The notes below the pieces were generated by a model that was not told the DNA's origin, did no database searches, and was given only the letters and a program-made list of their open reading frames with translations. Position numbers and translations under genes: made by a program. DNA of 64,000 nucleotides, taken from NCBI GenBank assembly GCA_964394075.1, contig CAYMVI010000002.1, positions 95,234-159,233 on the forward strand. The letters run 5' to 3'. The stretch comes from an uncultured Eubacteriales bacterium. GTDB lineage: Bacteria; Bacillota; Clostridia; TANB77; UBA1234. Shown here piece by piece: positions 4,097 to 22,675 of this stretch (the stretch's first letter is position 1; the number at the start of each line of letters is the position of its first letter).

Positions 4097-4189
4097 TTAT
4101 GTCTACTGAAATTTCTTGAAATATTGACTTTTAGCCATTTTTGATATATTAATTAGTTCAAATCAAATACAAGAAAGGAGAATTTCCGC

Positions 4190-4834: not shown

Positions 4835-4847
4835 TTACACACAAAAA

Positions 4848-4896
4848 AAGAAGCTACGAACACAATTCGTAGCTTCTTTGCTTTTTATTAAAACAT
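4848..4896. terminator. Bidirectional rho-independent terminator serving the HD gene and corA.
   Basis: AAGAAGCTACGAA-CACAA-TTCGTAGCTTCTT followed by TGCTTTTTATT. Confidence 0.6.
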
Positions 4897-5835: not shown

Positions 5836-5910
5836 GGTAACTCACACTCCTTTTTATTCCTTACAAATTAAACAGCGTGAGTTTATGATATTGCCCACGC
5901 TTATATAATT

Positions 5911-6663
5911 TTATTTAATAACTTTATAAACTTTCCAATCTCTTCTACCTAATTGCCATGCAAAGTCTTTATCAAACACCGCATAATCAAATCTGTATTT
6001 TCCTTTTACCGCACTACCAGTATCCATTGCAACTACATATCCTAAACCTTCAATGTAAAATTCAGTTCCCAATTTCCAATAATCAGTATCTACAGCAATT
6101 GATACGCCCGCAACAATCGGCTTGCCAGAAGCAGTAAAACCTAAATTATTACTACATTCTTCTGGACTTGGTGTATATGCAGTTCCTTCGAATATTCCTA
6201 CATATTCGAGTTTGCTAAAATCAACTGCACCATCTGCTTGCTCAGCATCACCGTAATTTTGTGGTGTAATACCTACGGCAGCAGCAATTTTCAAAGTATC
6301 TTGTAATCTCATATTTTCTTCAATAATACTTTGATTGTTTTTAGCTAACATCTCTGCAGTATACGCAAGATTTTCTTGTTCTTCAGCTATTTCTTTCTTT
6401 TGTTCCTCAATTTCTTTTTTAGTTTCTTCTATAACTAATTGATCTTTCACAACTTGCTCTTTGTCTATTTCTAAAGCATCGCTCTTTGCGTGGTATGCTA
6501 TAACAGTCCCCTTAGCGTACATATAAATGCCGGCAGCAATGCAAAGTGCTAATAGCATGCAGCCAAACACAATTCTAAAATTCTTTTTTAACTTAATTTT
6601 ATCTTTTTTTCTGCTAAGCATACCCTTAATTTGTATAGCTTTATCCGCACTCACAATGCTCAC
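5911..6663 (-). CDS. 3D-domain (MltA/YocH-like double-psi beta-barrel) cell-wall protein with an N-terminal membrane anchor and coiled coil.
   Basis: 250 aa. C-terminal GTAYTPSPEECSNNLGFTASG...VAMDTGSAVKG..RFD is typical of a 3D domain. Confidence 0.7.
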   Translation of the reverse strand: MSIVSADKAIQIKGMLSRKKDKIKLKKNFRIVFGCMLLALCIAAGIYMYAKGTVIAYHAKSDALEIDKEQVVKDQLVIEETKKEIEEQKKEIAEEQENLAYTAEMLAKNNQSIIEENMRLQDTLKIAAAVGITPQNYGDAEQADGAVDFSKLEYVGIFEGTAYTPSPEECSNNLGFTASGKPIVAGVSIAVDTDYWKLGTEFYIEGLGYVVAMDTGSAVKGKYRFDYAVFDKDFAWQLGRRDWKVYKVIK

Positions 6664-6786
6664 CTCCGTAAGGTTACAAGTTCATCACAAGTATTATATC
6701 ACAAAAGAAAATATCCGCAAGAAGTAAAATGTCAAAAACAGTAAAACAATGCAAAAAGAGACACCTCGTGCGAAGTGTCTCTTATA

Positions 6787-7617
6787 TTATGCATGAATCC
6801 AAGAACTGAATTCTTCTCTATATAATATCATGTTGATTTTAGCAAGCATTTCGAAAAACGAACTGTCACGCACCATAACAATCTCGATCATCTCTGGAGT
6901 TTTTCTGATACGTCTCTTCCCTACCTTGGTGTTTTTTACAATATCTCGAATCTCGGAATATGTTTCCTGCGTAAGGATTTCGCCACAGTAAATTCTAATA
7001 CGATAATAATAATCTCCCATTATCGAGAAAGCATATTGACCGGATACATTTTCAATGCCAAGTTCTTCAAACCTCTTGAGCTTTTTTGTTACGCCTTTTA
7101 TTAATCTAGATATATAAGATTGAGAGAGATTAAAATATTCTCTTCCAATATCATACTGATTCAACTCACCCAAATTCATCAAAGCTACGGTTGATTCTTT
7201 GACTGTAAGGCGATTCAAAATCAAATTAATTCTTCTTTCAGCCTCTTCTCTCTTCTCTATGTCTTCATAGTAGTTATGGGTATCAGCAAGCATTTCAGCA
7301 AACGTCGATTTGTCTTTCGGTCTATCTGTAGACTCGCTATCAATTGGTTCATCAATAGATATACATTTTGCCCTTATTTTGTTTTCCTTTCGGTAAAACA
7401 TTTTGATTTCATTCAAAATGCATCTAGACGCGTATGTAGAAAATTTTCTATTTAAAGTGGGATCAAAAGTAGAAGCCGCCTTGCAAAGGCCCATCATACC
7501 TAATTGACACACATCATCGTAATCCCGTGGTTCAACCTCGCATTTACGTGCAATCAAGTAATACACTAGTTTTTCGTTTTCCTTAACTAGTTTTTGTTGT
7601 TCGACATTTAATGTCAC
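6787..7617 (-). CDS. Sigma-70-family RNA polymerase sigma factor with a C-terminal extension.
   Basis: 276 aa. Region 2-like FSTYASRCILNEI. Region 4-like LSQSYISRLIKGVTKKLK. Confidence 0.65.
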   Translation of the reverse strand: MTLNVEQQKLVKENEKLVYYLIARKCEVEPRDYDDVCQLGMMGLCKAASTFDPTLNRKFSTYASRCILNEIKMFYRKENKIRAKCISIDEPIDSESTDRPKDKSTFAEMLADTHNYYEDIEKREEAERRINLILNRLTVKESTVALMNLGELNQYDIGREYFNLSQSYISRLIKGVTKKLKRFEELGIENVSGQYAFSIMGDYYYRIRIYCGEILTQETYSEIRDIVKNTKVGKRRIRKTPEMIEIVMVRDSSFFEMLAKINMILYREEFSSWIHA

Positions 7618-7793
7618 AAAAAATCATCACCTTTCCTGCAAAATAACGAAATCTCCACTTGATAATTTCACAATTCAACAATCCACCTCTCATTCCATAT
7701 TAATGAAATTCGCATGTACAATATTCATATTTTGCCACACATGTTATACCACGGAATGTCAACTTCTGTCAACCACAAAAGCCCTCGAATTAT

Positions 7794-7823
7794 TGACAAA
7801 ATCCCTTTTTCTTTGGTATAATT
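7794..7823 (+). promoter_or_regulatory. ssrA promoter.
   Basis: TTGACA, 18 nt, TATAAT, then a 17-nt gap to the tmRNA 5' GGGG. Confidence 0.5.
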
Positions 7824-7840
7824 CTAGTGTTTCTATATAC

Positions 7841-8194
7841 GGGGATGTAAAGGTTTCGACGGATATTTTGAAGCTAGAATAGCGAGTGATGGATTCTCAC
7901 TTGGCCATCTAAAAAATGTGAGAATTATAAATAATTAACAACAATAAAGTTGCTTTAGCTGCCTAGTTGCGGCTACGTTTGCCTGTTTGTGCCACTTTCA
8001 TACAACGCAAGCGTCATCTAAAAGTGGAAACGAAACTATCAAAACTTTGAGATAGTGGGTACCTATCAAGTTACCGATTTATTTAGCCTGTTTACCGGCG
8101 ACTTACTTTGGGAATCTTAAAAGATAAACTGCACTCGGAGAAGTTCTTGTGGATGGATTTTCGGACAGGAGTTCGATTCTCCTCATCTCCACCA
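7841..8194 (+). ncRNA. ssrA: tmRNA (transfer-messenger RNA).
   Basis: 5' end GGGGATGTAAAGGTTTCGACGG. 3' end GGACAGGAGTTCGATTCTCCTCATCTCCACCA (T-arm plus acceptor plus CCA). Internal tag reading frame ends ...NNKVALAA-stop (gttgctttagctgcctag). Confidence 0.9.
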
Positions 8195-8205
8195 AAAATT
8201 AATGC

Positions 8206-8240
8206 CTGTATTTGTTGAAATACAGGCATTCTTATTATTT
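8206..8240 (+). terminator. ssrA rho-independent terminator.
   Basis: AATGCCTGTATTT-GTTGA-AATACAGGCATT followed by CTTATTATTTTTT. Confidence 0.6.
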
Positions 8241-8266
8241 TTTACTGCAATTTTACTGCAACGCAC
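8241..8266. repeat. attL core direct repeat.
   Basis: TTTACTGCAATTTTACTGCAACGCA. Matches 52006-52031 apart from a 1-nt indel. Confidence 0.6.
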
Positions 8267-8277
8267 TAAAAAACAAA

Positions 8278-8469
8278 TTATTTTCTTTTTGGTTTTACAT
8301 ATCTCATAAAATCACAAATATCACAATCAAACATGTAGCAAATTTTAGCTAGTATATCTAAGTCTACTCTATCAACTCTACCACCATCTGAAAATTGGCC
8401 TAAATTAAAAAACATACATGCTTGTCTGTATATTTCAAGCGAATTTATTCTTACATTTATTCCTGTCAT
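8278..8469 (-). CDS. Small HTH-like protein (63 aa) at the prophage left end.
   Basis: C-terminal ILAKICYMFDCDICDF resembles the XRE HTH recognition helix. Weak. Confidence 0.35.
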   Translation of the reverse strand: MTGINVRINSLEIYRQACMFFNLGQFSDGGRVDRVDLDILAKICYMFDCDICDFMRYVKPKRK

Positions 8470-8564
8470 TTTAAATTATACTTTATATTCATTTTGTTTA
8501 TTTTTACTAATCTATGAATTTGGAGAAAAAAAGAAGCCTACCTCGTAAAGAGATAGGCTTAATT

Positions 8565-8810
8565 TTATTTAACTGTTGGCATAACTTCACCTTCAGCGAT
8601 TCTATGTAGTTCTTCAAAATCTTTCTTTGCAAGCTCTTCCGCTTCTTTATATGTTAAGTATGGGTATTTAGCTCCTTTAGTTGCATTCGCTTTAAACATA
8701 CTATAAGCAATATCCATATTAACACCGTTTGCTTTTGATATAGCACCGATTGGTTCATTATATTTATCCTTTATTTCTTTTTCTTTTTGATAAAAATTCA
8801 TATCGTTCAT
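8565..8810 (-). CDS. Hypothetical protein (81 aa) downstream of the lysis genes.
   Basis: ORF with an AT-rich upstream region. No recognisable domain. Confidence 0.35.
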   Translation of the reverse strand: MNDMNFYQKEKEIKDKYNEPIGAISKANGVNMDIAYSMFKANATKGAKYPYLTYKEAEELAKKDFEELHRIAEGEVMPTVK

Positions 8811-8885
8811 TCCTTTCTTTTTAGCCCATAAATTTCATTACCCTTGTCTTTAAAATCGATTTTTGAGGATTCTCGTGGCTCGTTT

Positions 8886-9446
8886 TTAACTCAATAATGT
8901 TTTTACATCGTTTGCCCACTTAATAAAAATCCATTTCTCATCTTTTATAATTTCTAGTTTCTTCAAGGCTAGTTCTTTGTCTAATATTCTTCCCGTTTTA
9001 AATAGATACTCTATTGCATCTAGTTCATCTCCATCTTCAAATAATTCAATTACTTTTTCTTCAACGTAATCTATCCAGTCAAGTTTTCCCCACTGCTTCC
9101 AACCTCTGTCTTTTAAGTTGGTTTCTACTACGCCGTATGCGTGGCCTCTAGCCTCGATTACTTTGCCATTGCCAACATATACCCCAACGTGCCCTGGATA
9201 AAAAACAAGTACACCCTTAACATCTGGCATGCTCGTTATATCGCCTTTTTCTGAACAATGGTCTAAATCAATACCGCCATCAATTTCAGCAGTATATTTA
9301 TCTGGATTATAAAAGTCATCTGGTGTTTCACAGAATAGATATCCTTTTATTAATCCAGAACAGTCATGCACTTTTTGCCCATATTGTTCAGCGAAATCAT
9401 CCGCCTTATAATATTGAGGATATTGAGCCGAAAGTCTTCCTAACAA
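8886..9446 (-). CDS. NlpC/P60-family cysteine peptidase, phage endolysin. The N-terminus may extend to about 9536.
   Basis: HDCSGLIKGY catalytic Cys motif with downstream His. The only canonical in-frame start is TTG at 9446. The conserved N-terminal segment IGRPYWYATHAHK is encoded in-frame upstream with no ATG/GTG/TTG. Confidence 0.7.
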   Translation of the reverse strand: MLGRLSAQYPQYYKADDFAEQYGQKVHDCSGLIKGYLFCETPDDFYNPDKYTAEIDGGIDLDHCSEKGDITSMPDVKGVLVFYPGHVGVYVGNGKVIEARGHAYGVVETNLKDRGWKQWGKLDWIDYVEEKVIELFEDGDELDAIEYLFKTGRILDKELALKKLEIIKDEKWIFIKWANDVKTLLS

Positions 9447-9493
9447 ACTCTCGCTAGCTTTGTGTGCATGGGTTGCATACCAATATGGTCTTC

Positions 9494-9838
9494 CTATTTG
9501 TTTTCGACAGTATTCGACAAGTCCGTAGATTTGTTTTCATTAGTATCCTCTCCTTTCGCTTTATTTATATCTGCCAAACCGTTTGCATTTAATGAGATAA
9601 GAATCCCATTTATGAAGTGCAATACTGTGTTCCACATTTGAAATGTGCCCGCATGTAAATCAACAATTACAAGTAATAAAAAAGCGACTACGATGCTCCA
9701 CAACCTCGTTGGCATTTCCTTTATTCCCCACGCATTTTTAGTTACTGCAACAATCGAGTAAACTGCAAGTACAAATATTGCATAATCTCCAAGCATTTCC
9801 CAAGTCATAAATTGCTCCATATTCTCACCTTCTTCCAC
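9494..9838 (-). CDS. Holin (two TM helices, charged C-terminal tail).
   Basis: 114 aa. Two hydrophobic helices, then a highly charged tail. Immediately upstream of the endolysin. Confidence 0.6.
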   Translation of the reverse strand: MEEGENMEQFMTWEMLGDYAIFVLAVYSIVAVTKNAWGIKEMPTRLWSIVVAFLLLVIVDLHAGTFQMWNTVLHFINGILISLNANGLADINKAKGEDTNENKSTDLSNTVENK

Positions 9839-9860
9839 ACAAAAAGGAGCAGGCTCGTGT

Positions 9861-12800
9861 TTACCTACTCCTTTTATAGATTTTTTCTGATACTGTGTCT
9901 TGTGCAGTACCTTTAGCTTTAGTTAATAAACTTTCTTTTTTCTTTAGTTTCTCCGACTCATTCATCTCTTTGTAACTTCTTTTTTTCTCTTCTGTACTTA
10001 GTAATTTTTCATATTCATCTTTTGCAATCTGTGCATATTCCTTCATGTCAGCTTCTGTGTATTCAACCTCAACTGTCTTCATCGAATTGACTTTGTATTT
10101 ATAGGTTGTTTGTGCTGGATAGTACTCATATAGTTTTATCTTATCTGCGTTACTTGGATTGATTAAATCTTTTCCAAGATAGTATCTAGCTGTATCTGTT
10201 CTTAATTCTTGTAATTCATTGATTTTGTTTTTCTTCTGTTCTGCGTTTAATTGCAAACTATTCCTTGTAGTTTTTATGTCTTTGTTTAATAATTTCAAGG
10301 TATCTTTTGCGTAGTTTAATTGTTTTAGTTGTTCTAACTCTTCTGGTGTAGCCTCGCTATAATTTTTCTTTATCTCAAGTTCACTTGCTAATTCATAAAC
10401 TTCATCTAGAGACACACCACTCTTATATCCGCTAGCAAAGAATCTTTTTAATATAAATTGTTCGCTTTTGTTTTTTGCAGGTTGTTCTCCGCTATCTTGT
10501 ACATCTAAGAATTTATCTGCCAAATCTAAGAATTGTGTACCCAAACCAGCCAAGTATCCCTCAAAAATATTATCAATATATATTGGACTTACATTTAATG
10601 CCCCACCTAGCATTATAGCTAATTCACTAGTGTATTCATTGTATTGATCTGCTGGTTTCGTATCGCCTTTTAAATATTCTGATACTAAGTCTGTTTTATA
10701 ATAAAAATCTTTGTTTAACATATTTTCAAGCAGTGGTTTTATTATTTGTGGCACTGCATTTCCTAAATCATCTGCAGGCAACATATCAAACAATGTATCT
10801 TTTACCCAGTCAGCAAGTCTCTCGCCTTCTTCTCCTTTCGGTATCTTATCATTGCTTAAATCGTATAAATATTCAGCTAGATTTATAAAACTTCTTGCTG
10901 TACCTTGAGCTTTCTTTATAGTTAATGGTTCACTCGTGCTGTCATAAGCTATTACAAAGTTGTCTTTTTTCTTTTGGTCTGTCATTTCTTCAACATGTTT
11001 ATTTTCTTTTTCTTCTGTATATTCTTTTAAAGCAAGAGCAAACGCTATCATTATTCCTAGTTTCAACGATGTTTTAAAAGGATGTGCATGTACAGATTCT
11101 CCAAATCTATATACAGAACCAACTCTCGCTGATGAAAACGGAATAAATTTATTTATAACTCGTGTTGTTTTACCAGCTCTACCGAAGTCTTGAGTTATAT
11201 CTTTTGCATTTAGTGCTGTTTTCAATCGTATATCTCTGTTTGACATTCCCTTTTTTCTATAAAGTTTTGTTTCTTTTCTGAAGTTTTGGAAACGTGTACT
11301 TTCTTCTGTTAACTCCGATGTGTATGTCAAAAGATTCAGCGTTTTGTCTATCAACATACTTGTCAAATCTAAAAACGCTTTGTATTTTGTGCTATTTAAC
11401 TTATATTTACCAGTCTTTGGATCTTTTTTACCAAATAACACTTTTTTGTTTTTACTATATATGTCTGTTGCATTATCTCTTATTTTAGCTCTATATGTTG
11501 AGAATCTACCAGATTGACTCGCTCCACTTTGTTGATATAAATTATAGAACTCTTTTTGTGCTTCTACATATTCCTGGAAAATAGGTACTTGACTTAATAT
11601 TCTTGAAAAAACATTATCTCTTCCAGCAAGAGTATTTACAATTCCAAGGATATTGTCTACCAAAGGAATAAACACAGTATCACTATATAAAAACGCTTGT
11701 TGTGAGTCCGAAATGGCATTCGGCACAGCAAATTCTGCGTTCGCCATTGTAGCACCATATCTCAAAGGCATATTAGCCCAATTCATAAATTTTTCAACTA
11801 TATTCATATTTTGGCTGTTCATACCTTTTAAAACGTTGTACAAGTCTTCATCATAAAATTGAACGAACACCCTTTTTCCATCATCAATATAGCTCATTAT
11901 TTTATTTTTATCATCTGCTAATTTCATGTTAAATACGTTATAAACTTCTTCTAAGTTTAGGTCGGATGTATCTATTCCTTGTTGCGAAAGAGCTTTTTCA
12001 AATTTTGATAATTCAACACTTCCTTTGTATTCCATTGGTGGTGGTACTATTTCAAATAAGTCAGCGTATTGGTTGCTTTTTCTACCTAAATTAACTAATG
12101 ATTTCAAGACTTTATTGTTTTCAACTTGTCTTATAATTCTTGAAGCATTAACAATAGTACTTTCTATTGGATCAATGATTTCACGCTCAGAACCAGTTGT
12201 TTTATACACTGTTTTTCCTACTTTTGCTCCTTTTGTTGATGCAGATATTATTTTACCTTCATTATCCATTACTCTGTTCATCGCAATATAGTTTTCATTT
12301 AATTTTTCAATATCTTCAATTTGTTTCGCTGTAAATAAACCTTCACGCCTTGCATATTCCAAAATACCGTTGTTTTCTTTTCTGAAATTATCTGCTGTTT
12401 TCTTTATTTTTTCATCTTTTTCTAACAGATTAGTTGTCGCAATAGCATCTTCTTTTCTTAATCCTGTTTGTTGCCCTTTCTTCACATAGTCTCGATTTCT
12501 TTGTGCAATCAACAAAGCTCTTAATTTCATCATATCTTCTGCTTTACTTATAGGCTCTAATACACTAGCAAAACCTTGTGTTATTTTTTCATCAGTGTCC
12601 CAATCTCTAATACCCTTATTTAGCATATTAGTTGTTTGGTCGCTTCCACTATTGACCAATCTAAATAGCACATAAGGGTCTTCGCTTGGCTTTAATTCGT
12701 GTCTGTTTCTTAACCCAGTTCTTTTTGCAAGAGTATCGCTAGCCTTTTTCAAATACCAGTTATCATCATAAATTTCAAACATAAGCCTATCTATAAATTT

Positions 12801-15800
12801 ACCAAGAGTAAAATTTTTCTTTTCATCTTCGTTAATAGACACATTACTCATTATTCTTTCTTCAGGTCTCATGTTTATATATGCTTTTACATCGTTTATT
12901 AAATCAGTAAATAACTGATCCAATTCAACATTACTTTCTCTTGCTTCTGTGATAAAATCAGCCAAATAAGGATATTGTTTTATAGCGTTTTCAGTATCTA
13001 CAATATATCTTCTCGTAAATTCTGCAAAACCTTCTTGAAGTTTTATTTTTGGAGTATTGTTATATACATCGCCAAATTGTCTCTCACATAAATTATTCAT
13101 TTCTCTTGCTAATTCTTTGTGTTGTTTTTTCCATGCTAAAGTATCTTTTGTTGGTGTCACATTTAATTGTGCTAAATCGACATGATGTCCTAACTCGTGA
13201 ATAATTGATTCTATATCAGTTAACTGCTTTGTTCTTATAGATTGAATTGCTGAATTATAAACTGCATAAGCTTTTTGTCTAAATCCACCTGTACGAATAG
13301 GTCTGCCTAAATATTTTTCAATTTTTTGGCGAATTTCTTTTCTGCTTATAGTTCCTAAATTTTCTTCTCTGCTAACCTTACCGCTTTCAATGGCTCTAAT
13401 TTTTTGTTCTATTAAAGCTGACATTCTTTCTGCGTTCGTTTTATAAGAATCTTGTACACCATCATCTTTTCTGCTTAACTTTATTTGTGAATCCTCATCT
13501 AATTTAGGCTTTGCCGTTGCTTTTACTTTCTTCACTTTGCCATCTGTATCATGGAATATATTTTCTTCTTTCATGGCATTAATAAGTGCTCGCCACGATT
13601 TATTTATGTTTGCTCTTTCTTCTCCTGCAGGGAAAGGATTAAACAAACCATATCTATCATTGTTAACCGAATGAACCAAATAATCATTTGTTATTCCTTT
13701 TTTCTTTAATTCATCATGTACAAAAGCCTCAAAGCTTCTAGCTAGCATCTCTTCTCTTAGAGCAAAATATGTTGATGCTCTACCCATTAATTTATCCAAT
13801 TCTCTTGCAGATTTACTAAATGCACTTTCAGAGCGAACAAATGCAACCTGTTTAGCAGGCACACCACTTCTATACAAAGAATATACTGTATCATCATCTA
13901 TTTTTCTGTTTGTAACAGCTTTTATAAGTGTTTTCAAATCTTCTAAAGGTTTATCATATATTACTTCAAATTTACTTCTAGAAATTTGTTTGTAATCTCT
14001 TTTGTCCTTTAACTTACCTTCTATAAGTATTTTTCTTATTTTTTCGTACTCTTTCTTTTGTTCTGCAGTTACTTCTATTGGAATATTCTTATATTCGCCT
14101 TTAACTCTCTTATATTTTTTTGCTTTACCATCAAATACATCATCATAATATTTCAAGTTATATTCTATACTGCTTTTTCTATTTTTTTCAAACAAGGCGT
14201 TTTTCTTTGCAATTTCTTCCTCGTTTGTTGAAAAACTGTATTCTATATTATCTAATAGTTCTCTATATGCCTTTGTTACACTTTCTGGAAGATTCCTATA
14301 CATTTTGTGTATACTCAAAAGTCCATCACTATCATAACCAGATAATTGCGATAAATAATTATCTAGTGCATGCCCCATTTCGTGAGCCACACTTCCTGCT
14401 CCTTTTAACTTTGTCATATTAAAAACTTTTTTCACTGGCTCAAAATGTGCAGATGCACCACTTAATCCATGACCTCTTGCACCAAACGCAATAGCCATTT
14501 TACCATTGAATCCTAAGTCTGAAGGTATAATATCTAGTGCTGTTGCCAAATCAGTTAAAGAATCATATCCATAATTTAAAAACTTTTGCCTTTCTTCATT
14601 GTTAACCCAATTTCCAAATTCTCCACCCCTGAAATTAAATTTATCTAATATTTCTTGTCCTGTTGCATTAACACTATTTGCATTATTAGGATTTATTCTT
14701 GTAACTTTTTGAATTTGTGGTCTAAATAGATTTTTTCCATGCTCAGCCAAATACATACTTAAAGCCATTGCGTATGATTCTGCTTCTTCTCTTGTACTAA
14801 AAGATTTTCCAGTATCTCTACTTTTTAATGTTTTAGGTTCTATTATTTTTACAATGTATCTTTTATGCTTATTACCTTCTTTGTCATAAGCATAACCTTC
14901 TTCTACTCTAGCTCTATTATTATTTATGTTTGTTTTAAATTCTTCTAAAAACTTTTCAGCATCCGCTTCTGACTTAAAATCGCCTTTTAAAACATTACCC
15001 TTGAACGCTACACTATATACTTCTTCTGTCTTTCCATCTTCGGTTTCAATAATATCTTTATTGATTGTGTAATTATGAATAACCTCTCTTGTAAAATGTT
15101 TTTTAGTGCCTTGCCATACATCTTTTCTAGCACCACCAATTTTCTCACCAAAATCATCTATTTTTTCTGTTTTGTTTTTAGCTTCCAGTTTTTCAATTTC
15201 ATTTCTTAATCTTTTTCTTTCAGCATCCCATTTATCAAAACCATCTCGTGCTTTTTCAGTATATTGTAATGATTTTGCATATTCTTTGTATTTCAATTCA
15301 GCATAATCAAGCTCTACATTTAACCCTTTTAATTTATCGGCTAAAGAAAAAGAACCCTGTTCATTAGAGTTCTTTTTGTATATTAGTTCTATATGTTTTT
15401 TTATAGTTACAATCGTATCATTGTAAAATTTTTCTCCCAACGCATCAATATATACTTTTTTGAGATATTGTGCATCTTTATCATTTATATCTGTAGTATT
15501 CAGATCACACAAAATTTCTTTTGCAAAATTTTTTAAGTCTTTCGCAATGTCTCTTTTTTGTTTGTTACTTAATAAATCTTTATATTCATTAAAAAGTTTA
15601 TTAATTGCCTTAGCGTTGTTGCTGATAGAGTGTATTATTTTTGAAAAATCTTCTATTACAATTTTAGTATGGTTTAACAGCATGTCTTCTACTAGTTCAT
15701 GATTTAAAACAGCTTTATATCCAACAGACTCTGCTTGCCCTATCGAAATATAAATTCCATCTTGTGCAGTGAAACTAGATATATCATCGTTTTGAAAAGC

Positions 15801-18368
15801 AACAATTTTTAACCCAAAAATTTTTCCAAATTCAATTATTTCCTGTTTCTGTGGTGTCGGCACGATTTCGTTCTTTATCCTTTTCACCAATGTTTCCGCA
15901 TCTTTTCTTTGTCTCTCTGTCTTTTCAATAATCCAGTCCTTAACTCCCAAAACAGTTTTTTCATTTCCATTTCGGTCATTTTTATCCCCCCTGACTTGAT
16001 TATACACTGGAGTTTGATTTTTATCAATCCCAGTACTATTTTCTTTTATTTCTGATTCATTTGATATTTTTTCTTGTTTTTTCTTGTTTGCCTCCTGTTT
16101 TCTATAATTTTCAACAAACTCAATTCCTTCTTTACTGTCTACATATCTATCAAACACAATCTTTATTGCCTGGTCTTCTACTTCACCAACGTAATCTTGC
16201 CAATCCATGTCGAAAGCTTCTTCGCCATATTTATCTTCAAGCAGTTTTTTCTCAGTCTCAATTATTTCTTGCTTATTTAGTTTTTCTAAAATAGCATCGA
16301 ATAATTTCGCATCCTCGCTTCGAAAAAATTTTGTATCTAGACTTTCTATTTTTGCATATTGTCCTTGTAACGAATCAATCCAATCTACATCTTTTAATTC
16401 AACTTCTTTTGAATATATTTTACCGCTTCCTGCATACGTTTGTGCTTCCACTTTTGAAGGTGTAACAAACGTTCCTTGTTTAATAGGATGGCTACTATAT
16501 ACAATAGCTTTACCTGTTTCAATCATTTTTTTTACCATTTCTGCACTCACATCAGGAGTAAGCGATTGGATTTCGCCATCTAAATCTTCTTGTAAAGCCT
16601 CTTCAAATGCTTTTATATCTTCTATGTTTCTAATCCAAGTATGTTCTGAAAGATTAACATCAACAGGGTTTTCTTTCAATATTATATCTAGTTGTTGCTG
16701 TTTGTGCTTATCTATATCTTCAATCGGAGAATATGTAGTTGTTTTTTCCTCTTTTTTTACTGTTTTTTGATTTTCTGGAACATTTCCTACATCTATATCA
16801 TATTCATTCCCTAATTTATATCCTTGCTTACGCATATCTGCATAATTATCAAATCCAGCTTGTTGTGCCATTATATCTCTGTATTCTGCAATCGGTATAT
16901 TACCTATATTAGTTTGCACTGTTTTTTCATTTTTTAGTGCATTTTTATTAGTTATCTGTGCATTTTCTGTTGATGTCTGCACATTCTCTGCAGATTCTGC
17001 AGTGTTTTGAACATTCTCGGTAACTTGGTCATTTTTGTTCAATTTAGTCATTTCTGTATTAGTTGACTGAGTGGCTACTTGGTTACTTGGTTTCCATTCC
17101 TTTTGTTGATTTGTAGGTATTTGTTGTACTTGATTGTTAGTTGGTTGCACTGTATTTTGTTTGTTAGCTTGAACGTTTTTAATCGTATTTACTGCCACAC
17201 TTCCACCTGCATTTAGTCCACCAGATACAGTAGCTATTTTCATGCCACCTTCTACTGCTTCTTTTACTCTTGCTGACTCTTCTTCTTTTGTTCCAGTATA
17301 TTCTATGCCAACCTTTTTAAGGGCTTCTTTTTCTTTTTCTATAGCTATTCTTTCTTGAATGCCCTCTTCAGCACCTTCTGACAAGATGTTTATTCCGTAT
17401 GCTTTTAATGCTTCTGCCAACATTTTCTTAACTGTCACTTGAGTTGCTGTCTTTGCTCCTGTTGTAAATAGCTTACTGAATCCGCCCATTGTAGCTAAAT
17501 CTAGAACGGCTTCTCCACTTTCTACAACTGATTGCCAAAATGCGGTATCACTTGCAATTTCCCTAGCAACCTCATTGAAATACTTTTGTTCTTCAGCTGT
17601 AAGACCACTTCTAGCTCCCAACTCAAGAAGACTTGCGTATGCACTACCTCTCATTTGGTCATAACTCCATTTAGCAATACCACCAACATATCCAGCTTTA
17701 GCTCCCCATATAGCACCAGTACCAGCACCAACTGCTGTTCCTGCTCCAGGAACTACGCTTCCAATTCCTGCTCCAATTCCAGCACCAGTACCAGCACCTA
17801 CTACTGCTCCACCAGCACCAGCTACTTGTTGACCTACTAGCTGTGGAAGATATTGTGCAAAGTCTTTAGTTATCCAATTACCTTTACCAACATTCGTAGC
17901 ATATTTTTGATATCTTTCTATTTCTGCTAGAATCTCTTGGGCTTTTTCCAAATCTTTTTGATTTTGGCTTTCAAAATATTTATTCATTGCATCGTTATAC
18001 TCTATTTGTAATTCACCCAAATGCTTATTACTAGCAAATTTACCCTTATCATAAGATTCCAAAGCTTCTTTCAGTTCCTCTTCCGATAAATCTTTGTGAT
18101 CACTAACTATCGTTGTTTTAAAAGGTGATGTATCATTACCTACTAAGTTTGGAATTTTAGCACCTGTGTTTACTGCATTTATATTGTTAGCCTTTGCATA
18201 CGCTTGGGCTTCTTCTAATGTTTTAAATTTAGGCATTGTAGTCGTTTGTGTTTCTTCTTTCTGTGTTGGGTTTAGTGCATTTTCCTTAAACTTTTTATAA
18301 GCATCGCTAATATTATTAGTTTGTGTTTTCTTTTCTAAAGCAGATTTTTTAAATTGTTCGTATGTCAT
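9861..18368 (-). CDS. Giant 2835-aa virion-associated polyvalent protein (T7 gp16-like internal/ejection protein position) with two zincin HExxH motifs and a glycine-zipper segment.
   Basis: Uninterrupted 8.5-kb ORF. Gly-zipper VAGAGGAVVGAGTGAGIGAGIG. HEMGHALD and IIHELGHHVD metallopeptidase motifs. N/Q-rich linker. Lies between the tail/internal-protein genes and the holin. Confidence 0.8.
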   Translation of the reverse strand: MTYEQFKKSALEKKTQTNNISDAYKKFKENALNPTQKEETQTTTMPKFKTLEEAQAYAKANNINAVNTGAKIPNLVGNDTSPFKTTIVSDHKDLSEEELKEALESYDKGKFASNKHLGELQIEYNDAMNKYFESQNQKDLEKAQEILAEIERYQKYATNVGKGNWITKDFAQYLPQLVGQQVAGAGGAVVGAGTGAGIGAGIGSVVPGAGTAVGAGTGAIWGAKAGYVGGIAKWSYDQMRGSAYASLLELGARSGLTAEEQKYFNEVAREIASDTAFWQSVVESGEAVLDLATMGGFSKLFTTGAKTATQVTVKKMLAEALKAYGINILSEGAEEGIQERIAIEKEKEALKKVGIEYTGTKEEESARVKEAVEGGMKIATVSGGLNAGGSVAVNTIKNVQANKQNTVQPTNNQVQQIPTNQQKEWKPSNQVATQSTNTEMTKLNKNDQVTENVQNTAESAENVQTSTENAQITNKNALKNEKTVQTNIGNIPIAEYRDIMAQQAGFDNYADMRKQGYKLGNEYDIDVGNVPENQKTVKKEEKTTTYSPIEDIDKHKQQQLDIILKENPVDVNLSEHTWIRNIEDIKAFEEALQEDLDGEIQSLTPDVSAEMVKKMIETGKAIVYSSHPIKQGTFVTPSKVEAQTYAGSGKIYSKEVELKDVDWIDSLQGQYAKIESLDTKFFRSEDAKLFDAILEKLNKQEIIETEKKLLEDKYGEEAFDMDWQDYVGEVEDQAIKIVFDRYVDSKEGIEFVENYRKQEANKKKQEKISNESEIKENSTGIDKNQTPVYNQVRGDKNDRNGNEKTVLGVKDWIIEKTERQRKDAETLVKRIKNEIVPTPQKQEIIEFGKIFGLKIVAFQNDDISSFTAQDGIYISIGQAESVGYKAVLNHELVEDMLLNHTKIVIEDFSKIIHSISNNAKAINKLFNEYKDLLSNKQKRDIAKDLKNFAKEILCDLNTTDINDKDAQYLKKVYIDALGEKFYNDTIVTIKKHIELIYKKNSNEQGSFSLADKLKGLNVELDYAELKYKEYAKSLQYTEKARDGFDKWDAERKRLRNEIEKLEAKNKTEKIDDFGEKIGGARKDVWQGTKKHFTREVIHNYTINKDIIETEDGKTEEVYSVAFKGNVLKGDFKSEADAEKFLEEFKTNINNNRARVEEGYAYDKEGNKHKRYIVKIIEPKTLKSRDTGKSFSTREEAESYAMALSMYLAEHGKNLFRPQIQKVTRINPNNANSVNATGQEILDKFNFRGGEFGNWVNNEERQKFLNYGYDSLTDLATALDIIPSDLGFNGKMAIAFGARGHGLSGASAHFEPVKKVFNMTKLKGAGSVAHEMGHALDNYLSQLSGYDSDGLLSIHKMYRNLPESVTKAYRELLDNIEYSFSTNEEEIAKKNALFEKNRKSSIEYNLKYYDDVFDGKAKKYKRVKGEYKNIPIEVTAEQKKEYEKIRKILIEGKLKDKRDYKQISRSKFEVIYDKPLEDLKTLIKAVTNRKIDDDTVYSLYRSGVPAKQVAFVRSESAFSKSARELDKLMGRASTYFALREEMLARSFEAFVHDELKKKGITNDYLVHSVNNDRYGLFNPFPAGEERANINKSWRALINAMKEENIFHDTDGKVKKVKATAKPKLDEDSQIKLSRKDDGVQDSYKTNAERMSALIEQKIRAIESGKVSREENLGTISRKEIRQKIEKYLGRPIRTGGFRQKAYAVYNSAIQSIRTKQLTDIESIIHELGHHVDLAQLNVTPTKDTLAWKKQHKELAREMNNLCERQFGDVYNNTPKIKLQEGFAEFTRRYIVDTENAIKQYPYLADFITEARESNVELDQLFTDLINDVKAYINMRPEERIMSNVSINEDEKKNFTLGKFIDRLMFEIYDDNWYLKKASDTLAKRTGLRNRHELKPSEDPYVLFRLVNSGSDQTTNMLNKGIRDWDTDEKITQGFASVLEPISKAEDMMKLRALLIAQRNRDYVKKGQQTGLRKEDAIATTNLLEKDEKIKKTADNFRKENNGILEYARREGLFTAKQIEDIEKLNENYIAMNRVMDNEGKIISASTKGAKVGKTVYKTTGSEREIIDPIESTIVNASRIIRQVENNKVLKSLVNLGRKSNQYADLFEIVPPPMEYKGSVELSKFEKALSQQGIDTSDLNLEEVYNVFNMKLADDKNKIMSYIDDGKRVFVQFYDEDLYNVLKGMNSQNMNIVEKFMNWANMPLRYGATMANAEFAVPNAISDSQQAFLYSDTVFIPLVDNILGIVNTLAGRDNVFSRILSQVPIFQEYVEAQKEFYNLYQQSGASQSGRFSTYRAKIRDNATDIYSKNKKVLFGKKDPKTGKYKLNSTKYKAFLDLTSMLIDKTLNLLTYTSELTEESTRFQNFRKETKLYRKKGMSNRDIRLKTALNAKDITQDFGRAGKTTRVINKFIPFSSARVGSVYRFGESVHAHPFKTSLKLGIMIAFALALKEYTEEKENKHVEEMTDQKKKDNFVIAYDSTSEPLTIKKAQGTARSFINLAEYLYDLSNDKIPKGEEGERLADWVKDTLFDMLPADDLGNAVPQIIKPLLENMLNKDFYYKTDLVSEYLKGDTKPADQYNEYTSELAIMLGGALNVSPIYIDNIFEGYLAGLGTQFLDLADKFLDVQDSGEQPAKNKSEQFILKRFFASGYKSGVSLDEVYELASELEIKKNYSEATPEELEQLKQLNYAKDTLKLLNKDIKTTRNSLQLNAEQKKNKINELQELRTDTARYYLGKDLINPSNADKIKLYEYYPAQTTYKYKVNSMKTVEVEYTEADMKEYAQIAKDEYEKLLSTEEKKRSYKEMNESEKLKKKESLLTKAKGTAQDTVSEKIYKRSR

Positions 18369-18379
18369 ACTCTGCCTCC

Positions 18380-20161
18380 TTAAATAATATCTTTTTCTAG
18401 TTCTTCATATAACCTTTGTCCTATATCATCTTCTAATCCTTGTTGGATATAATACTCTAGTACTGCCGTTGCTTCTTCTTTGCTGTATGTATTTCCTATT
18501 GCCTTGGCCACCGTTTGATAGTCTTGAGTTCTAGGAATATAGTCCAATCCGTATTCTTGATACTTCTTCTTCCATTCTTCATAACTAATACTTCCATTAG
18601 CAAAAAGGCTATCTATATAATCCATTTTTTCTTCATCATTCATATCAGCAATATCTGGATTTAATATCTTGTTTGCATCTGCTACTGTATAGCCTTGACT
18701 ACCTATCGCTTGCACAAACGCATCATAGTTTTTAGCATTGTCTCTTGCGAATATCAACATTTCTCTTTCAATGTCTTCACCTTCTGAATTGTCGTACATT
18801 ATTTGTAGTTGTTCTTTAAGTGCAGATGCACTCAAATCTCCATTGAATTTATACTTTGATGTAATTTCCCCACTAACGATATTATTTCCATTTTGAGTGT
18901 TATTTTGTTCATCTGAGCCACCATTCTCATAGTAGTAATCAATCGCTTTCTTTTGCTCGTATGTTTGTAGTTCTAATTGTGCTTTCACTTCTGCTAGTGC
19001 CATGTCTGTATATAGCTCGTTATATTTCTTTTCAGCTTCTTCTTGTGATGCACGGATTGACTCTCTTATAGCTGGCGAAAGTATTCCAACTGGTACTCCT
19101 AAAGCTATAGATGCCTCATTATCTACATATCCTAATTGGTTTACTCTGTTCCATTGATATTCTTTTTCATCTTTTTGTGCTTGATAATATTCTAGATTTA
19201 ATTGAACATTAGAAAGCCATCTGTTGTATTGTGTTTCTTCTAGTCCAATAACAAAAGATGCCATTGATTCTAGCCTGCTTAGGTTCTCATAAAATTCTTC
19301 TTTTGCCATTTTGCGATAAGTCTCTTCCAGACTTGCAACTGTACTTGTTACGATTTGTGCTGTCATTGTAGAATCTAATATTCCTTTAGCATTCATGCTT
19401 TCATAGACAGTATTCATTGCGTGCTCTTGTGCTTTTACTAGAGCTTCATCATCGCTTGGATCATAAGTGAATCGCATCGTTAATAATTCATTTACAATTC
19501 CCTTTATTACGCTGTCATATTCGCTCTTATATTCAACACTCCCTAAATAACTAGCACTATTGTCTTGCTCTGGTGCTTTATAATTCACCATGTTTTTATA
19601 GTTTTGTAATTCTATTCCAATAGCTTCAGCTCCTGTATAATCACCACTATTTAAGGCATATGCGATTTTATTCTCGTAATCTTTTATCATGTTTGCTATT
19701 TTTTGATTTCTTAGGTTATTTAGTTCATATACGCTTGTTTTGTATATGGCATCATACCCGTTTGAGACTCTATATTGGTCTATCGCATTCAATGCATTTA
19801 TTTGTGCTTGATAATCGTTTATTTGAACACCATATTTATAGTCATTTATATAACCCTGCACTGTTGCATCTACAAAATCACTAGGCATTTGAACCGCAAC
19901 TGTGTTTCCTGTTGGTTGTGCAACTTCTGATGTATATGTTGCTTGTGGTTGTGTCGATATTGTTGGTGCTAGAGACAGCTCTTGGTTTGGTTGTGTTGTA
20001 TTTGGTTGAGCTGGTTGAGTGCTTTGGGTTTGTTCTGGCACTCCTGTTTGTGCATATGTTTGTGGTTGCACTTGATATGTTGTGTTTGCTTGCGTATTAC
20101 TTCTAACTTCTGTATTCGTTGTGTTAGGCATTTCTACATTAGCATTTTCAGTCTTTAACAT
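18380..20161 (-). CDS. 593-aa putative internal virion (core/ejection) protein.
   Basis: Position upstream of the giant protein, analogous to T7 gp14/15. Q/T-rich N-terminus. No recognised domain. Confidence 0.35.
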   Translation of the reverse strand: MLKTENANVEMPNTTNTEVRSNTQANTTYQVQPQTYAQTGVPEQTQSTQPAQPNTTQPNQELSLAPTISTQPQATYTSEVAQPTGNTVAVQMPSDFVDATVQGYINDYKYGVQINDYQAQINALNAIDQYRVSNGYDAIYKTSVYELNNLRNQKIANMIKDYENKIAYALNSGDYTGAEAIGIELQNYKNMVNYKAPEQDNSASYLGSVEYKSEYDSVIKGIVNELLTMRFTYDPSDDEALVKAQEHAMNTVYESMNAKGILDSTMTAQIVTSTVASLEETYRKMAKEEFYENLSRLESMASFVIGLEETQYNRWLSNVQLNLEYYQAQKDEKEYQWNRVNQLGYVDNEASIALGVPVGILSPAIRESIRASQEEAEKKYNELYTDMALAEVKAQLELQTYEQKKAIDYYYENGGSDEQNNTQNGNNIVSGEITSKYKFNGDLSASALKEQLQIMYDNSEGEDIEREMLIFARDNAKNYDAFVQAIGSQGYTVADANKILNPDIADMNDEEKMDYIDSLFANGSISYEEWKKKYQEYGLDYIPRTQDYQTVAKAIGNTYSKEEATAVLEYYIQQGLEDDIGQRLYEELEKDII

Positions 20162-20175
20162 TTCTTTTCCCCTTT

Positions 20176-20382
20176 CTAAAACAATTTAGACCAATAAAAA
20201 ACAGTCTCTCGTATATTTTCTTTTATTTGAAAAGGCTTACCATATAATTTGGTAAGCCCTTTGCTCCATTGTTCAACTGTTTCTTTCTGTGTGCTGTACT
20301 TTCTATAGTACGCACCATGTCTAGACATCAATATTCTGCTCCATTCATTTAATGTTTGTTCTGTGGTATCATATATCTTCAT
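20176..20382 (-). CDS. Small phage structural-module protein (68 aa).
   Basis: ORF tightly packed between structural genes. Confidence 0.3.
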   Translation of the reverse strand: MKIYDTTEQTLNEWSRILMSRHGAYYRKYSTQKETVEQWSKGLTKLYGKPFQIKENIRETVFYWSKLF

Positions 20383-22007
20383 TTAATTCGCCACTCTTTC
20401 TCTAGCAAGAAGAACTTAGCATCGCCTTCTCCTACAATTCGCACTGCCATTGCATTTACTTTCTGCATGTACATTCTAGGAACTATGAGTCTTTGTCTCT
20501 CGCCACCTTCATGGTAGTATTGGTTTGGTTTATCCATTTGGTGATTTCCAACACGCTTGGTTTCGCCTATTAAGATATAACGTTTTTCCAAAGCTTCTTC
20601 TTGCCATGGTTCTATATTAGTCCAGTGGTCGCTAACATATACCTTTGCTTCAGCATCTGCTTGTAACCATACATCTGTTAATGTTTTCTTATGTTTCACT
20701 GTACCTAATATCCACGTTTTTGTTTCAAATCCATACTTTACTTTCACATAATCACAATTTCTCGTAACTATATCGAATAGCAAGTCTTGGCCTGTTGGCT
20801 GAGTATTCATCATAACTATGTCGCCATTATATTTAGCACCAATTAGGAAATCACTTCTTGTGAATGCTCTTGTATTTGTATCTACATCATATCTTACAAT
20901 TTCGTTAAATTCGCCATCCTCAGCCCACCATACACGATTTCTCGTATCATATACTAGGATTGTGTCATTCTCGGCATCACTTAAAGGACTTCTTTGTACG
21001 ATAATATATAAATATGAATCGTAACTGGCCATTCTAATCTTGTCTAACGCTGACATGTGTATGCCGATATTCTTTATTCCACCATACGATGCGTAATTAT
21101 CTCCGCCGTGTGGTTCAGATACTCTTGTTACATACGAACCATTGTATCTATACACTTTCGTGTCTGTGTCCATCCAATATAGGCATCTATCACAAATGTT
21201 TACAGTATTTTGAGATATACAACCAATCCCATCATCTGCATCTACTAATGTAAATTGATTTACTTCTGCGTTAGGCGAATCACCATATAAGATGTGCCAA
21301 CTTCTCTCACAAAATATAATTAATTTGCCATCGTAAGGAATAAGAGCCACAATTTTTCCCTTTGAATTTGTGATGTTTATTTCTCCTGCCGTATTGATAG
21401 GATCATCTTCACTAATTTCAAAATTGTCATATTGTCTCAAGTTGCTAAACTTTAGACTTGTTCCATCTCCTACCCAAAGTCTGTTCTTATGACATGTAAC
21501 TATACCTGTGTTTTTATCTTCAGCAGTCTTTAATTCTCCACCTTCTGTATAGATATACTTGCTTAGTGGTGTTGAGATTATAATATACACGTTGTTTGCA
21601 TCTCTGCATTCACACATGCTGAGCTCTACAGAATATGGCACTGAGCCAACATACACTTTATCTAACATTCCGTTAGAATTATAAGTGTATTTGTACAGAT
21701 AACTGTCCGCTTCTGTATTCTGTGGTGTCCTTCTGTCCTCTATTGCATACAGAACCTTTGAAGATGATGTGAATAGCTTTTGAATTTTACCAGTCGCAAA
21801 GTCCGTTGTATCTTCCATATACCACGCTAAACTTATTCTACTATTTCTTACTGATAATGTTGGTGGATTCAATAACGCTACATTCCACATATACGCCATT
21901 TGATTATCTTCTATAAATGTCTTGTCATAGCAAGTATTTAGTCCACCTTGCAACGTTATTACATCTGATATAGATTTTCCACCAACCTTATTTAAAAATG
22001 GTTTCAT
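20379..22007 (-). CDS. 542-aa putative tail tubular/nozzle protein (T7 gp12-like position).
   Basis: Synteny after a ~220-aa protein and before internal proteins. Beta-rich composition. Assigned by position only. Confidence 0.35.
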   Translation of the reverse strand: MKPFLNKVGGKSISDVITLQGGLNTCYDKTFIEDNQMAYMWNVALLNPPTLSVRNSRISLAWYMEDTTDFATGKIQKLFTSSSKVLYAIEDRRTPQNTEADSYLYKYTYNSNGMLDKVYVGSVPYSVELSMCECRDANNVYIIISTPLSKYIYTEGGELKTAEDKNTGIVTCHKNRLWVGDGTSLKFSNLRQYDNFEISEDDPINTAGEINITNSKGKIVALIPYDGKLIIFCERSWHILYGDSPNAEVNQFTLVDADDGIGCISQNTVNICDRCLYWMDTDTKVYRYNGSYVTRVSEPHGGDNYASYGGIKNIGIHMSALDKIRMASYDSYLYIIVQRSPLSDAENDTILVYDTRNRVWWAEDGEFNEIVRYDVDTNTRAFTRSDFLIGAKYNGDIVMMNTQPTGQDLLFDIVTRNCDYVKVKYGFETKTWILGTVKHKKTLTDVWLQADAEAKVYVSDHWTNIEPWQEEALEKRYILIGETKRVGNHQMDKPNQYYHEGGERQRLIVPRMYMQKVNAMAVRIVGEGDAKFFLLEKEWRIK

Positions 22008-22675
22008 TAGAATCTCCCCCTTCTAATCCAAGATAAAGGCGGTTTTTTATTGTCTTTTGTCTTAGGATAAAAAGGAGCTCCATTAAATTTCTCGGCTTTT
22101 GTTTGTTCTAACAGATTGTTGTATTTTAACGAATAATTATTAGATATCTCGATGTCTGGATTACTTCCTGCAGATGCCATGTCGGCTACTATTGCATACA
22201 CTAATAAATCAATGTATTTATCATCTATCTCAATAGGATCATCTTTAGTCTTTACCGCTCTTGGCGTTTTCTTATAGAACAACTTTACTCTTTCGTTGTC
22301 CGATGTTGGAACTGGGAATAAACCAATAGTGTTTCCATATCCATTAAAATATCTAACACCTTCTATTATGTCTGCATCTCTTGACCACACACATCTCTTA
22401 GGTGTTTTTGGGTTGCCGAAGTCTCTTGTTACCTCTTCAATATTTCCTTGTTCACAATCTGATGGTAATTTATATAGAGCTTGTCCTGCTATAGCTTGGA
22501 TATCATACATGTCATCTAACAATACAAGTTTATTCATTCTGTTTAATGCACTATTAATATATTCAACAAAGCCTTCTTGTAATTTTGTTTCGTGTCCTAC
22601 TTCTGTTTCAAAAATGAAGCCGTTATTAGGGTATTCTTTATTTACCATGCTTGCTATTTGATACGCTGTATACAT
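22007..22675 (-). CDS. 222-aa putative tail tubular protein A or head-tail adaptor.
   Basis: Size and position analogous to T7 gp11. Start overlaps the upstream gene's stop (ATGA). Confidence 0.3.
   Translation of the reverse strand: MYTAYQIASMVNKEYPNNGFIFETEVGHETKLQEGFVEYINSALNRMNKLVLLDDMYDIQAIAGQALYKLPSDCEQGNIEEVTRDFGNPKTPKRCVWSRDADIIEGVRYFNGYGNTIGLFPVPTSDNERVKLFYKKTPRAVKTKDDPIEIDDKYIDLLVYAIVADMASAGSNPDIEISNNYSLKYNNLLEQTKAEKFNGAPFYPKTKDNKKPPLSWIRRGRF

Follow-up and report, generated by a model that had tools for sequence, protein, structure and literature searches.

What kind of protein closes the structural gene block of a prophage and takes up about a fifth of its genome? The question is raised by a 64,000-nucleotide (nt) stretch of DNA from an uncultured Eubacteriales bacterium (GTDB lineage Bacteria; Bacillota; Clostridia; TANB77; UBA1234; NCBI assembly GCA_964394075.1, contig CAYMVI010000002.1, positions 95,234 to 159,233 of the forward strand), hereafter called the window. 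Here, an open reading frame (ORF) at 9861..18368 on the minus strand, the last structural gene of a ~44-kb prophage and ~19% of its length, runs for 2,835 codons plus a stop codon without internal stop. A sequence-only reading of the window had described its product as a giant polyvalent virion protein in the position of T7 gp16, with two HExxH metallopeptidase motifs and a glycine-zipper segment, of a kind that phages inject to neutralize host defenses. Our analysis points to a virion-packaged, co-ejected phage-type polyvalent protein of the LPD38 class as the likely identity of this giant protein. The start codon is well supported, with a GGAGG ribosome-binding site 6 nt 5' of the ATG, which itself lies 11 nt past the stop of the upstream 593-amino-acid (aa) ORF. 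An identical protein entry is on record in NCBI and Logan; the protein forms a single-member cluster whose nearest relatives have individual modules in common only; a megablast of the DNA against phage records returned no match.

Membership of the polyvalent class is supported by two Pfam matches above their gathering scores (27 in both cases): LPD38 (PF18857; aa 2460–2636, 10461..10991 on the minus strand, as are all modules described below; E 7.7e-25, 88.5 bits) and LPD1 (PF18796; aa 1530–1602, 13563..13781; E 1.6e-18, 66.9 bits). Both domains are hallmarks of phage-type polyvalent proteins (Iyer, Burroughs, Anand, de Souza and Aravind, 2017; PMC5512222). In size and mixture the giant protein also resembles this class, combining two zincins, LPD1, LPD38 and three domains without a family in 2,835 aa, and its gene sits among late and virion genes, preceded by those for an adaptor, a probable nozzle and the 593-aa protein and followed by the lysis genes, in a prophage bounded by a transfer-messenger RNA (tmRNA) gene and an integrase gene. 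It shares with the proteins that defined the class a giant multi-domain polypeptide encoded in a late gene block, the LPD38 and LPD1 domains and an HExxH zincin of the phage clade, but differs in having no ART, nuclease, methylase or helicase domain and in a complete domain set that is matched in no protein found. Judged on domain content, the assignment to the known LPD38 polyvalent class, defined in 2017, appears largely right, and the domain combination new. When the protein was compared with LPD, MPTase-PolyVal, ArdC and DarB profiles, LPD1 and LPD38 matched, and MPTase-PolyVal, ArdC and DarB did not.

Local alignments to 73 relatives delimit six modules, A to F, each with a different set of relatives. 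AlphaFold2 (AF2) models were made for aa 1–1060 and aa 1648–2835, with good alignment depth for module A only in the first of these; modules B and C had in practice one sequence as input, and their models are unfolded. Mostly helix is predicted in the modeled parts.

The C-terminal module F (aa 1648–2835, 9864..13427) comprises one of the two zincins (zincin 2), a large helical body and LPD38, and in homologues it stops ~100–280 residues or less from the C-terminus. Its AF2 model has no structure match in the PDB and has 67 fold matches in BFVD at E ≤ 0.001, the best with a TM-score of ~0.5 over ~1,000–1,200 columns. Most of these correspond to later pieces of giant proteins that are split into fragments and carry the annotation "large polyvalent protein associated domain", from phages that include PTXU04, Ralstonia phage Alix and Cellulophaga phage phi46:3. 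A pattern scan places further relatives in prophages of Firmicutes, Bacteroidia, Acidobacteria, Delta- and Alphaproteobacteria and other groups, and most module F relatives include zincin 2 with intact catalytic residues. Some relatives carry cell-wall-cutting lysozyme or SLT domains N-terminal to module F (PF18013 in P0058–60; PF01464 in P0049, P0052 and P0053), and LT_GEWL proteins are found among the BFVD matches; Pfam detects no SLT or lysozyme domain in the giant protein itself. Just N-terminal of LPD38 lies a hydrophobic helix (aa 2430–2448, 11025..11081), at which 8 of 13 homologues reach a 19-residue hydropathy of at least 1.3.

HExxH occurs exactly twice in the giant protein, as HEMGHALD (aa 1329) and as HELGHHVD (aa 1724), against a chance expectation of 0.027 given 29 histidines in 2,835 residues. 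Both motifs had been noticed in the sequence-only reading, although at ~1215 and ~1745, positions that are off by ~115 and ~20 residues. Zincin 2 (aa ~1690–1800, 12969..13301) has its HELGH at window positions 13185–13199, which AF2 puts on a helix after two short strands, followed by an EGFAEF helix at aa 1779–1784. In an alignment of 13 sequences, H1724, E1725, H1728, E1779, G1780 and A1782 are invariant.

Zincin 1 belongs to module E (aa 1061–1621, 13506..15188; PHROGs 616, 30335 and 29900), which adds to it a helical insert and LPD1 and is 74–79% identical to P0002 and P0003, two of the relatives, and 28–33% identical to other giants. The zincin 1 core (aa 1226–1408, 14145..14693, with HEMGH at window positions 14370–14384) is ~40% identical to the Stx-phage giant proteins, and H1308, H1329, E1330, H1333 and D1336 are invariant across 18 aligned sequences. 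It is matched by the NCBIfam model CLCA_X (NF041907) at E 1.3e-34 over model positions 5–185 of 250, with 119.8 bits compared to a whole-protein cut-off of 260 that is set for stand-alone proteins of ~250 aa. Members of CLCA_X, a zincin family that is the sister group of the CLCA protease domain, come mostly from phages and plasmids and often lie within very long proteins that have no other known domain; no biochemical test of any member is reported in its description (Lenart et al., 2013; PMC3650047). Zincin 1 shares with this family an HExxH followed by a conserved Asp, as well as its location in a very long protein. A common clade of phage-type peptidases is marked by a His that ends strand 2 and an Asp three residues past the HExxH (Iyer et al., 2017; PMC5512222), a pattern that H1308 and D1336 fit.

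The two zincins resemble each other (hhalign E 5.9e-5), and for both profiles the best match in the PDB is anthrax lethal factor (peptidase M34; PDB 2l0r, 4dv8), with E 0.0039 for zincin 1 and 0.0075 for zincin 2. HEMGHALD and HELGHHVD both line up with HEFGHAVD of lethal factor. The zincin 2 alignment covers HELGH, opposite HEFGH, and EGFAEFTR, opposite EFFAEAFR, which makes E1779 the predicted downstream acidic third zinc ligand. The likeness has limits: the E-values are marginal, only ~70–90 residues around the active site align and none of the other domains of lethal factor is found in the giant protein. LPD1 was considered as the helix that carries the third zinc ligand of zincin 1 and rejected, the lethal factor alignment placing that helix ~40 residues past the HExxH (~aa 1371–1385). 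With invariant catalytic residues, the lethal factor profile matches and the CLCA_X match, both HExxH motifs are real conserved zincin sites; they probably represent gluzincins of the lethal factor or CLCA_X kind, with a predicted peptidase activity.

Module A (aa 1–515, 16824..18368; core aa ~108–470) is conserved and has no Pfam model, a DUF3482 match within it (E 4.6e-5) falling under its cut-off. When 1.84 billion representative proteins were searched exhaustively, 345 clusters matched it at E ≤ 0.001, and among the matches listed it nearly always begins 1–330 aa from the N-terminus of proteins of 1,500–4,000 aa. Representatives of module A correspond to proteins P0074–P0216 of our set. 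In its alignment (A5) 25 columns are invariant, including G184, G187, G222 and G226. These glycines fall in a helical hairpin (aa 165–253, 17610..17876) that contains the Gly-zipper string VAGAGGAVVGAGTGAGIGAGIG, located at aa 182–203 (window positions 17760–17825). AF2 models the hairpin as helices 165–203 and 210–253; confidence is restricted to aa ~100–280, where the predicted local distance difference test (pLDDT) is 70–94 (mostly 70–85 in the hairpin), and drops to 54–69 at the turn (aa 200–229). With a 19-residue Kyte-Doolittle hydropathy of 1.51 (aa 188–206), the Gly-zipper is one of only two stretches of the protein above 1.4, and 14 of 21 homologues have a hydrophobic window at the same alignment columns. 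As a conserved hydrophobic helix of small residues it is long enough to span a membrane, and a membrane role is predicted. A word search of Iyer et al. (2017; PMC5512222) finds no mention of transmembrane segments. Its last part overlaps the N/Q/T-rich low-complexity linker that had been pointed out (aa 401–520, 16809..17168): N, Q and T make up 46% of aa 401–500, and AF2 gives a pLDDT below 50 for aa 374–490.

Between these ends lie modules B, C and D, followed by module E. Module B (aa 546–676, 16341..16733) is a compact, well-conserved domain of ~120 aa with 14 invariant columns and the consensus ...YHTWIR...ITVYSSHPI..G.FVTPS...A..YAG...VAWID..QGQYA. It is 43–53% identical in giants and in proteins of 300–900 aa, standing alone in the latter and lying directly upstream of ART domains in two giants, and it has no match in Pfam and none in the PDB by profile search. 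Module C (aa 682–781, 16026..16325) is common to P0002 and P0003 (48–59% identity) and P0194, and in P0002 it adjoins ART-PolyVal on its upstream side. Module D (aa 789–1015, 15324..16004) carries the motif H-E-[LVI]-[VM]-E at aa 890–894 (window positions 15687–15701), conserved in alignment with P0008 and P0044, and AF2 models three strands and then the motif helix at a pLDDT below 65. The motif resembles a zincin in which the second His is replaced by Glu. A third, degenerate zincin was set aside as no more than a lead, since hhalign is negative against both zincin profiles and AF2 confidence is low; one hhalign hit of module D, to the A4 profile, is a 16-residue overlap of the same sequence.

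A sister prophage (L034; ENA ERZ27298633, contig k141_103649, positions 2855–18101), compared with window positions 9494–23317, offers a natural exchange experiment. It keeps the same gene order upstream of the giant gene, with identities of 78% for the fiber N-terminus, 90.5% for the adaptor, 86.5% for the 542-aa protein and 81% for the 593-aa protein. Its giant protein is 64% identical in module A and 42% identical in module F; its center, which contains ART-PolyVal, is unrelated. Nor is there any similarity between the 114-aa ORFs that follow the two giant genes. Elsewhere in their sequences P0002 and P0003 carry ART-PolyVal or a PBECR nuclease, and other relatives carry DnaJ or zeta-toxin domains. 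By these comparisons, the central region (aa ~520–1650) behaves as an exchangeable cassette.

What such proteins do can be approached through homologues with experiments. Module F matches the 2,807-aa giant protein of phage phi24B (hhalign 99.6%, E 2.6e-24, 671 columns) and ORF C30 of Stx2 phage II (hhalign 99.3%, E 3.8e-20). The phi24B protein gp47 is abundant in the virion proteome and invisible in the cryo-electron microscopy reconstruction, and was proposed to be an encapsidated ejection protein that forms a conduit (bioRxiv 10.64898/2026.04.10.717836). The giant protein and gp47, or the Stx "LPD5 domain-containing protein", have a homologous C-terminal module, and both are encoded by the last large late gene of a podovirus. 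They differ in that the hhalign match to the Stx-phage proteins begins past the zincin 2 region, in that LPD5 and MuF-C are reported for gp47 whereas Pfam finds neither in the giant protein, in the Gram-negative host of Stx phages and in module A, which is undetected in the Stx proteins. A second homologue comes from PTXU04, where knock-down of PTXU04_00025, a 2,198-aa protein with LPD38 as its sole annotation, impairs infection (Adler et al., CRISPRi-ART, bioRxiv 10.1101/2023.09.18.558157). Among the BFVD fold matches of module F is the C-terminal fragment of a PTXU04 polyvalent protein (E 2.1e-27), a protein assumed to be the product of gene 00025; PTXU04 differs in being a lytic coliphage, and the N-terminal two-thirds of its protein are different.

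Two further virion proteins were compared. The virion RNA polymerase gp50 of phage N4 is an encapsidated giant whose encapsidation requires a region containing an HExxH zincin, and this zincin has likewise been linked to lethal factor (Iyer et al., 2017; PMC5512222). The giant protein differs from gp50 in having no RNA polymerase module. A homology of module F to the C-terminus of gp50 was rejected: against the last 1,658 residues, hhalign gives 6.9% probability over 61 columns around the HExxH. T7 gp16, which carries a lysozyme/transglycosylase domain, as some relatives of the giant protein do, acts with gp14 and gp15; it is likewise the last large structural gene of a short-tailed phage, and its presumed job is alike. 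The giant protein differs in having no lytic transglycosylase, in being about twice as long and in its zincins, and no sequence or fold homology between the two was found, so that the "gp16 position" is a matter of synteny only. In that sense the earlier proposal stands for the placement of the gene, which recurs in Bacillus phage Pony (giant gene, then holin, holin and endolysin) and in the sister prophage.

The genomic setting is that of a prophage inserted at the tmRNA gene. The tmRNA gene (7841–8194, plus strand; Rfam RF00023, 157 bits) borders the prophage on its lysis side, and a tyrosine integrase gene (50816–51997, plus strand) marks the opposite end. The 3'-terminal 13-mer of the tmRNA gene, TCATCTCCACCAA, at 8183–8195, repeats exactly at 52152–52164, just past the integrase gene; the repeat is the probable att core, and a ~44-kb prophage at ~8.2–52.2 kb follows from it. 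The tag peptide that ARAGORN calls for the tmRNA, VETKLSKL, is atypical and may be mis-called. All genes from ~49 kb down to 8.5 kb are on the minus strand. The prophage encodes the terminase subunits TerS and TerL, a portal protein, a Mu-gpT-like capsid protein, fiber- or spike-like proteins and an SU10-type adaptor. In the giant protein and the neighboring ORFs scanned, no family of tail tube, sheath, assembly chaperone, distal tail or tape-measure proteins was detected, and the absence of tail tube, sheath and tape-measure families from these ORFs argues for a short-tailed phage. The host is low in G+C, and the closest relatives of the prophage include Eubacteriales genomes assembled from metagenomes.

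After the capsid and fiber block, the gene order is 222-aa adaptor, 542-aa, 50-aa, 593-aa, giant, 114-aa and NlpC/P60. The ORFs of ~220, 542 and 593 aa described upstream of the giant gene do exist (the first measuring 222 aa), with the extra 50-aa gene called between the last two. The 222-aa tail adaptor (22007..22675, minus strand) matches Pfam SU10_adaptor (E 4.9e-13, 50.4 bits, cut-off 27). The 542-aa virion protein that follows it (20379..22007, minus strand) is matched weakly by PHROGs annotated "virion structural protein" and "internal virion protein" and is a probable nozzle. The 593-aa protein (18380..20161, minus strand) is Q/T/N/P-rich over its N-terminal ~100 residues and then helical; none of Pfam, PHROGs and NCBIfam contains a family that matches it, and it is a candidate for a further internal or ejection protein. 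On the lysis side, the endolysin that had been called is backed by a Pfam NlpC/P60 match (PF00877, E 2.4e-7, 31.1 bits, cut-off 23) of the 186-aa peptidase at 8886..9446 (minus strand). The 114-aa ORF at 9494..9838 (minus strand) has fourteen 19-residue windows with a hydropathy of at least 1.6; having transmembrane-like windows and no family match in the libraries scanned (PHROGs, Pfam, NCBIfam), it is labeled only holin-like. The holin annotation is weak, and a holin and endolysin pair is plausible overall. Three tRNA genes of the prophage, all on the minus strand, lie at 30055–30129, 35400–35487 and 35591–35665 (Met-CAT, Phe-GAA and Ile-TAT); one falls within the block of genes from portal to capsid, and the other two lie a short way upstream of the gene for TerS. 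Outside the prophage, past the tmRNA gene, the minus-strand ORFs at 6787–7617 and 5911–6663 encode a sigma-factor-like protein (PHROG 351, E 2e-29) and an L-alanyl-D-glutamate-peptidase-like protein.

We propose that the giant protein would be synthesized late together with other proteins of the virion, enclosed in the capsid and then released via the short tail, ahead of or with the DNA. Its conserved ends would be the delivery parts: module F may serve encapsidation and/or build a path across the envelope, and the N-terminal Gly-zipper hairpin would insert into a membrane. The stretch at aa ~520–1650 would be exchangeable cargo, made of the three domains without a family and the CLCA_X-type zincin with LPD1. 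The zincins would most likely cut protein, either the giant polypeptide itself, releasing its parts, or host proteins, with peptidoglycan a less likely substrate; known peptidoglycan peptidases have folds and motifs other than those of the zincins seen here. Cleavage of protein is favored because lethal factor is a protein-cutting toxin, because CLCA_X is sister to the CLCA protease and because Iyer et al. (2017; PMC5512222) argue for autoprocessing by the peptidases of polyvalent proteins. The proposal builds on domain content, conservation of catalytic residues, synteny and the cassette swap as observed at this locus, and borrows presence in virions and a need in infection from the homologues alone. 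A bolder version, in which module A is a general device for membrane insertion or translocation that works with whichever C-terminal module accompanies it, the whole protein is a self-processing ejectosome, at once channel across the envelope and carrier, with a swappable payload bay and modules B to D are new payload folds, seems doubtful to us.

Several results weigh against the proposal. Packaging, ejection, cleavage and catalysis are predicted properties of the giant protein itself, and neutralization of host defenses, as put forward in the sequence-only reading, is hypothetical here, no ArdC, DarB, methylase or other recognizable anti-defense domain being present. Pfam searches with segments at E ≤ 10 found no ArdC-N, methylase, helicase, ART or nuclease domain. 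MPTase-PolyVal likewise has no match at E ≤ 10, whether with the whole protein or with segments of 260–520 aa, so that the zincin call rests on the other evidence given above. The AF2 models are of poor confidence for aa 1–1060 (pLDDT 51) and of moderate confidence for the mostly helical module F (mean pLDDT 67.9). No solved structure resembles either modeled half, and therefore a likeness to ejection proteins of the T7 gp14/15/16 type is not shown. The membrane segments have their own weaknesses: the Gly-zipper_YMGG match in Pfam is sub-threshold (E 0.07–0.66, 10–13 bits versus a cut-off of 28.9), and the helix before LPD38 is weak in the giant protein itself, with a hydropathy of 1.15. Module F is detectable in only 16 of 94 long module-A proteins, the LPD38-type C-terminal module being undetected in the other 78; we thus rejected modules A and F as an obligate pair, and the idea of a two-ended delivery chassis is weakened. 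Finally, the authors of the phi24B study favor peptidoglycan degradation as the task of the gp47 peptidase (bioRxiv 10.64898/2026.04.10.717836).

How the ends and the center of the protein divide the work is what separates the proposal from its closest rivals. The giant protein could be a purely structural ejection conduit, an analogue of T7 gp16 in which the zincins serve maturation or local wall clearance and the center consists of spacers. A conduit is what the phi24B authors proposed, and it agrees with the giant gene closing the structural block behind the genes for adaptor, probable nozzle and 593-aa protein, with an LPD38 homologue that is required for efficient infection, with conserved hydrophobic segments and with the lack of any known effector domain in the giant protein. 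Against it, the center is replaced wholesale between prophages whose flanking genes are 78–91% identical, and the centers of relatives hold ART, PBECR RNase, GNAT, DnaJ and zeta-toxin domains, which are enzymes of host manipulation; moreover, the protein has no likeness in fold or sequence to gp16 or any solved ejection protein. We therefore regard the conduit as unlikely. The giant protein could instead be dispensable, packaged anti-defense cargo like DarB or DdrB of P1, with no part in DNA delivery. Such cargo corresponds to the reading of the class by Iyer et al. (2017; PMC5512222), and it would explain both why the giant gene evolves or is exchanged much faster than its neighbors and why relatives carry ART, nuclease and toxin domains. 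Against this stand the requirement for PTXU04_00025, with LPD38 as its only confident annotation, in efficient infection of a laboratory host, the conservation over many phyla of a module F far bigger than an effector requires, and the lysozyme/SLT fusions and Gly-zipper, which indicate work at the envelope. The giant protein also has none of the known anti-restriction domains, and we hold pure cargo to be improbable to a similar degree.

Two further explanations take the giant protein out of the ejected fraction. Its multi-domain giant size, the hydrophobic N-terminal segment and zincins like those of lethal factor, which are classical toxins, would suit an unpackaged protein, secreted, surface-exposed or resembling a polymorphic toxin, that is encoded by the prophage and benefits the lysogen. 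This appears very unlikely for a gene in a late structural operon, on the same strand as the upstream virion gene and 11 nt from it, with a homologue detected in purified virions and with an N-terminus that has no signal-peptide character (aa 1–100 are polar and charged). Least credible, and already largely refuted, is a tape-measure protein or an external tail fiber. Gly-rich hydrophobic segments occur in tape-measure proteins too, and the giant protein is very long and largely helical. A tape measure or fiber with no enzymatic modules, the case that would have overturned the polyvalent reading, is at odds with the two conserved zincin domains, with the scanned ORFs, which contain no long-tail families and include an adaptor of the podovirus SU10 type, and with homologues in podoviruses (Pagevirus, Stx phages and Pelagibacter podophages). 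In addition, three scanned proteins that have module A without module F carry ART-PolyVal, GNAT or MuF_C domains, not tape-measure domains, indicating that they are polyvalent too.

Taken together, our findings favor delivery and cargo joined in one polypeptide, and what they add is modestly new: the domain combination, a widespread N-terminal Gly-zipper module, three central domains without a family and a clean natural cassette swap. In some podoviruses, giant LPD38 proteins account for as much as a fifth of the genome; Stx-phage virions contain one of them in abundance, and a second is required for infection. If the prophage is inducible, phi24B would gain a counterpart of the Gram-positive type; failing that, the result is a correct annotation rather than a discovery. 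The giant protein provides a module map, a natural swap experiment and two conserved active sites that can be mutated, so that delivery with cargo, conduit only and cargo only become directly testable against one another, and the locus is a good experimental system.

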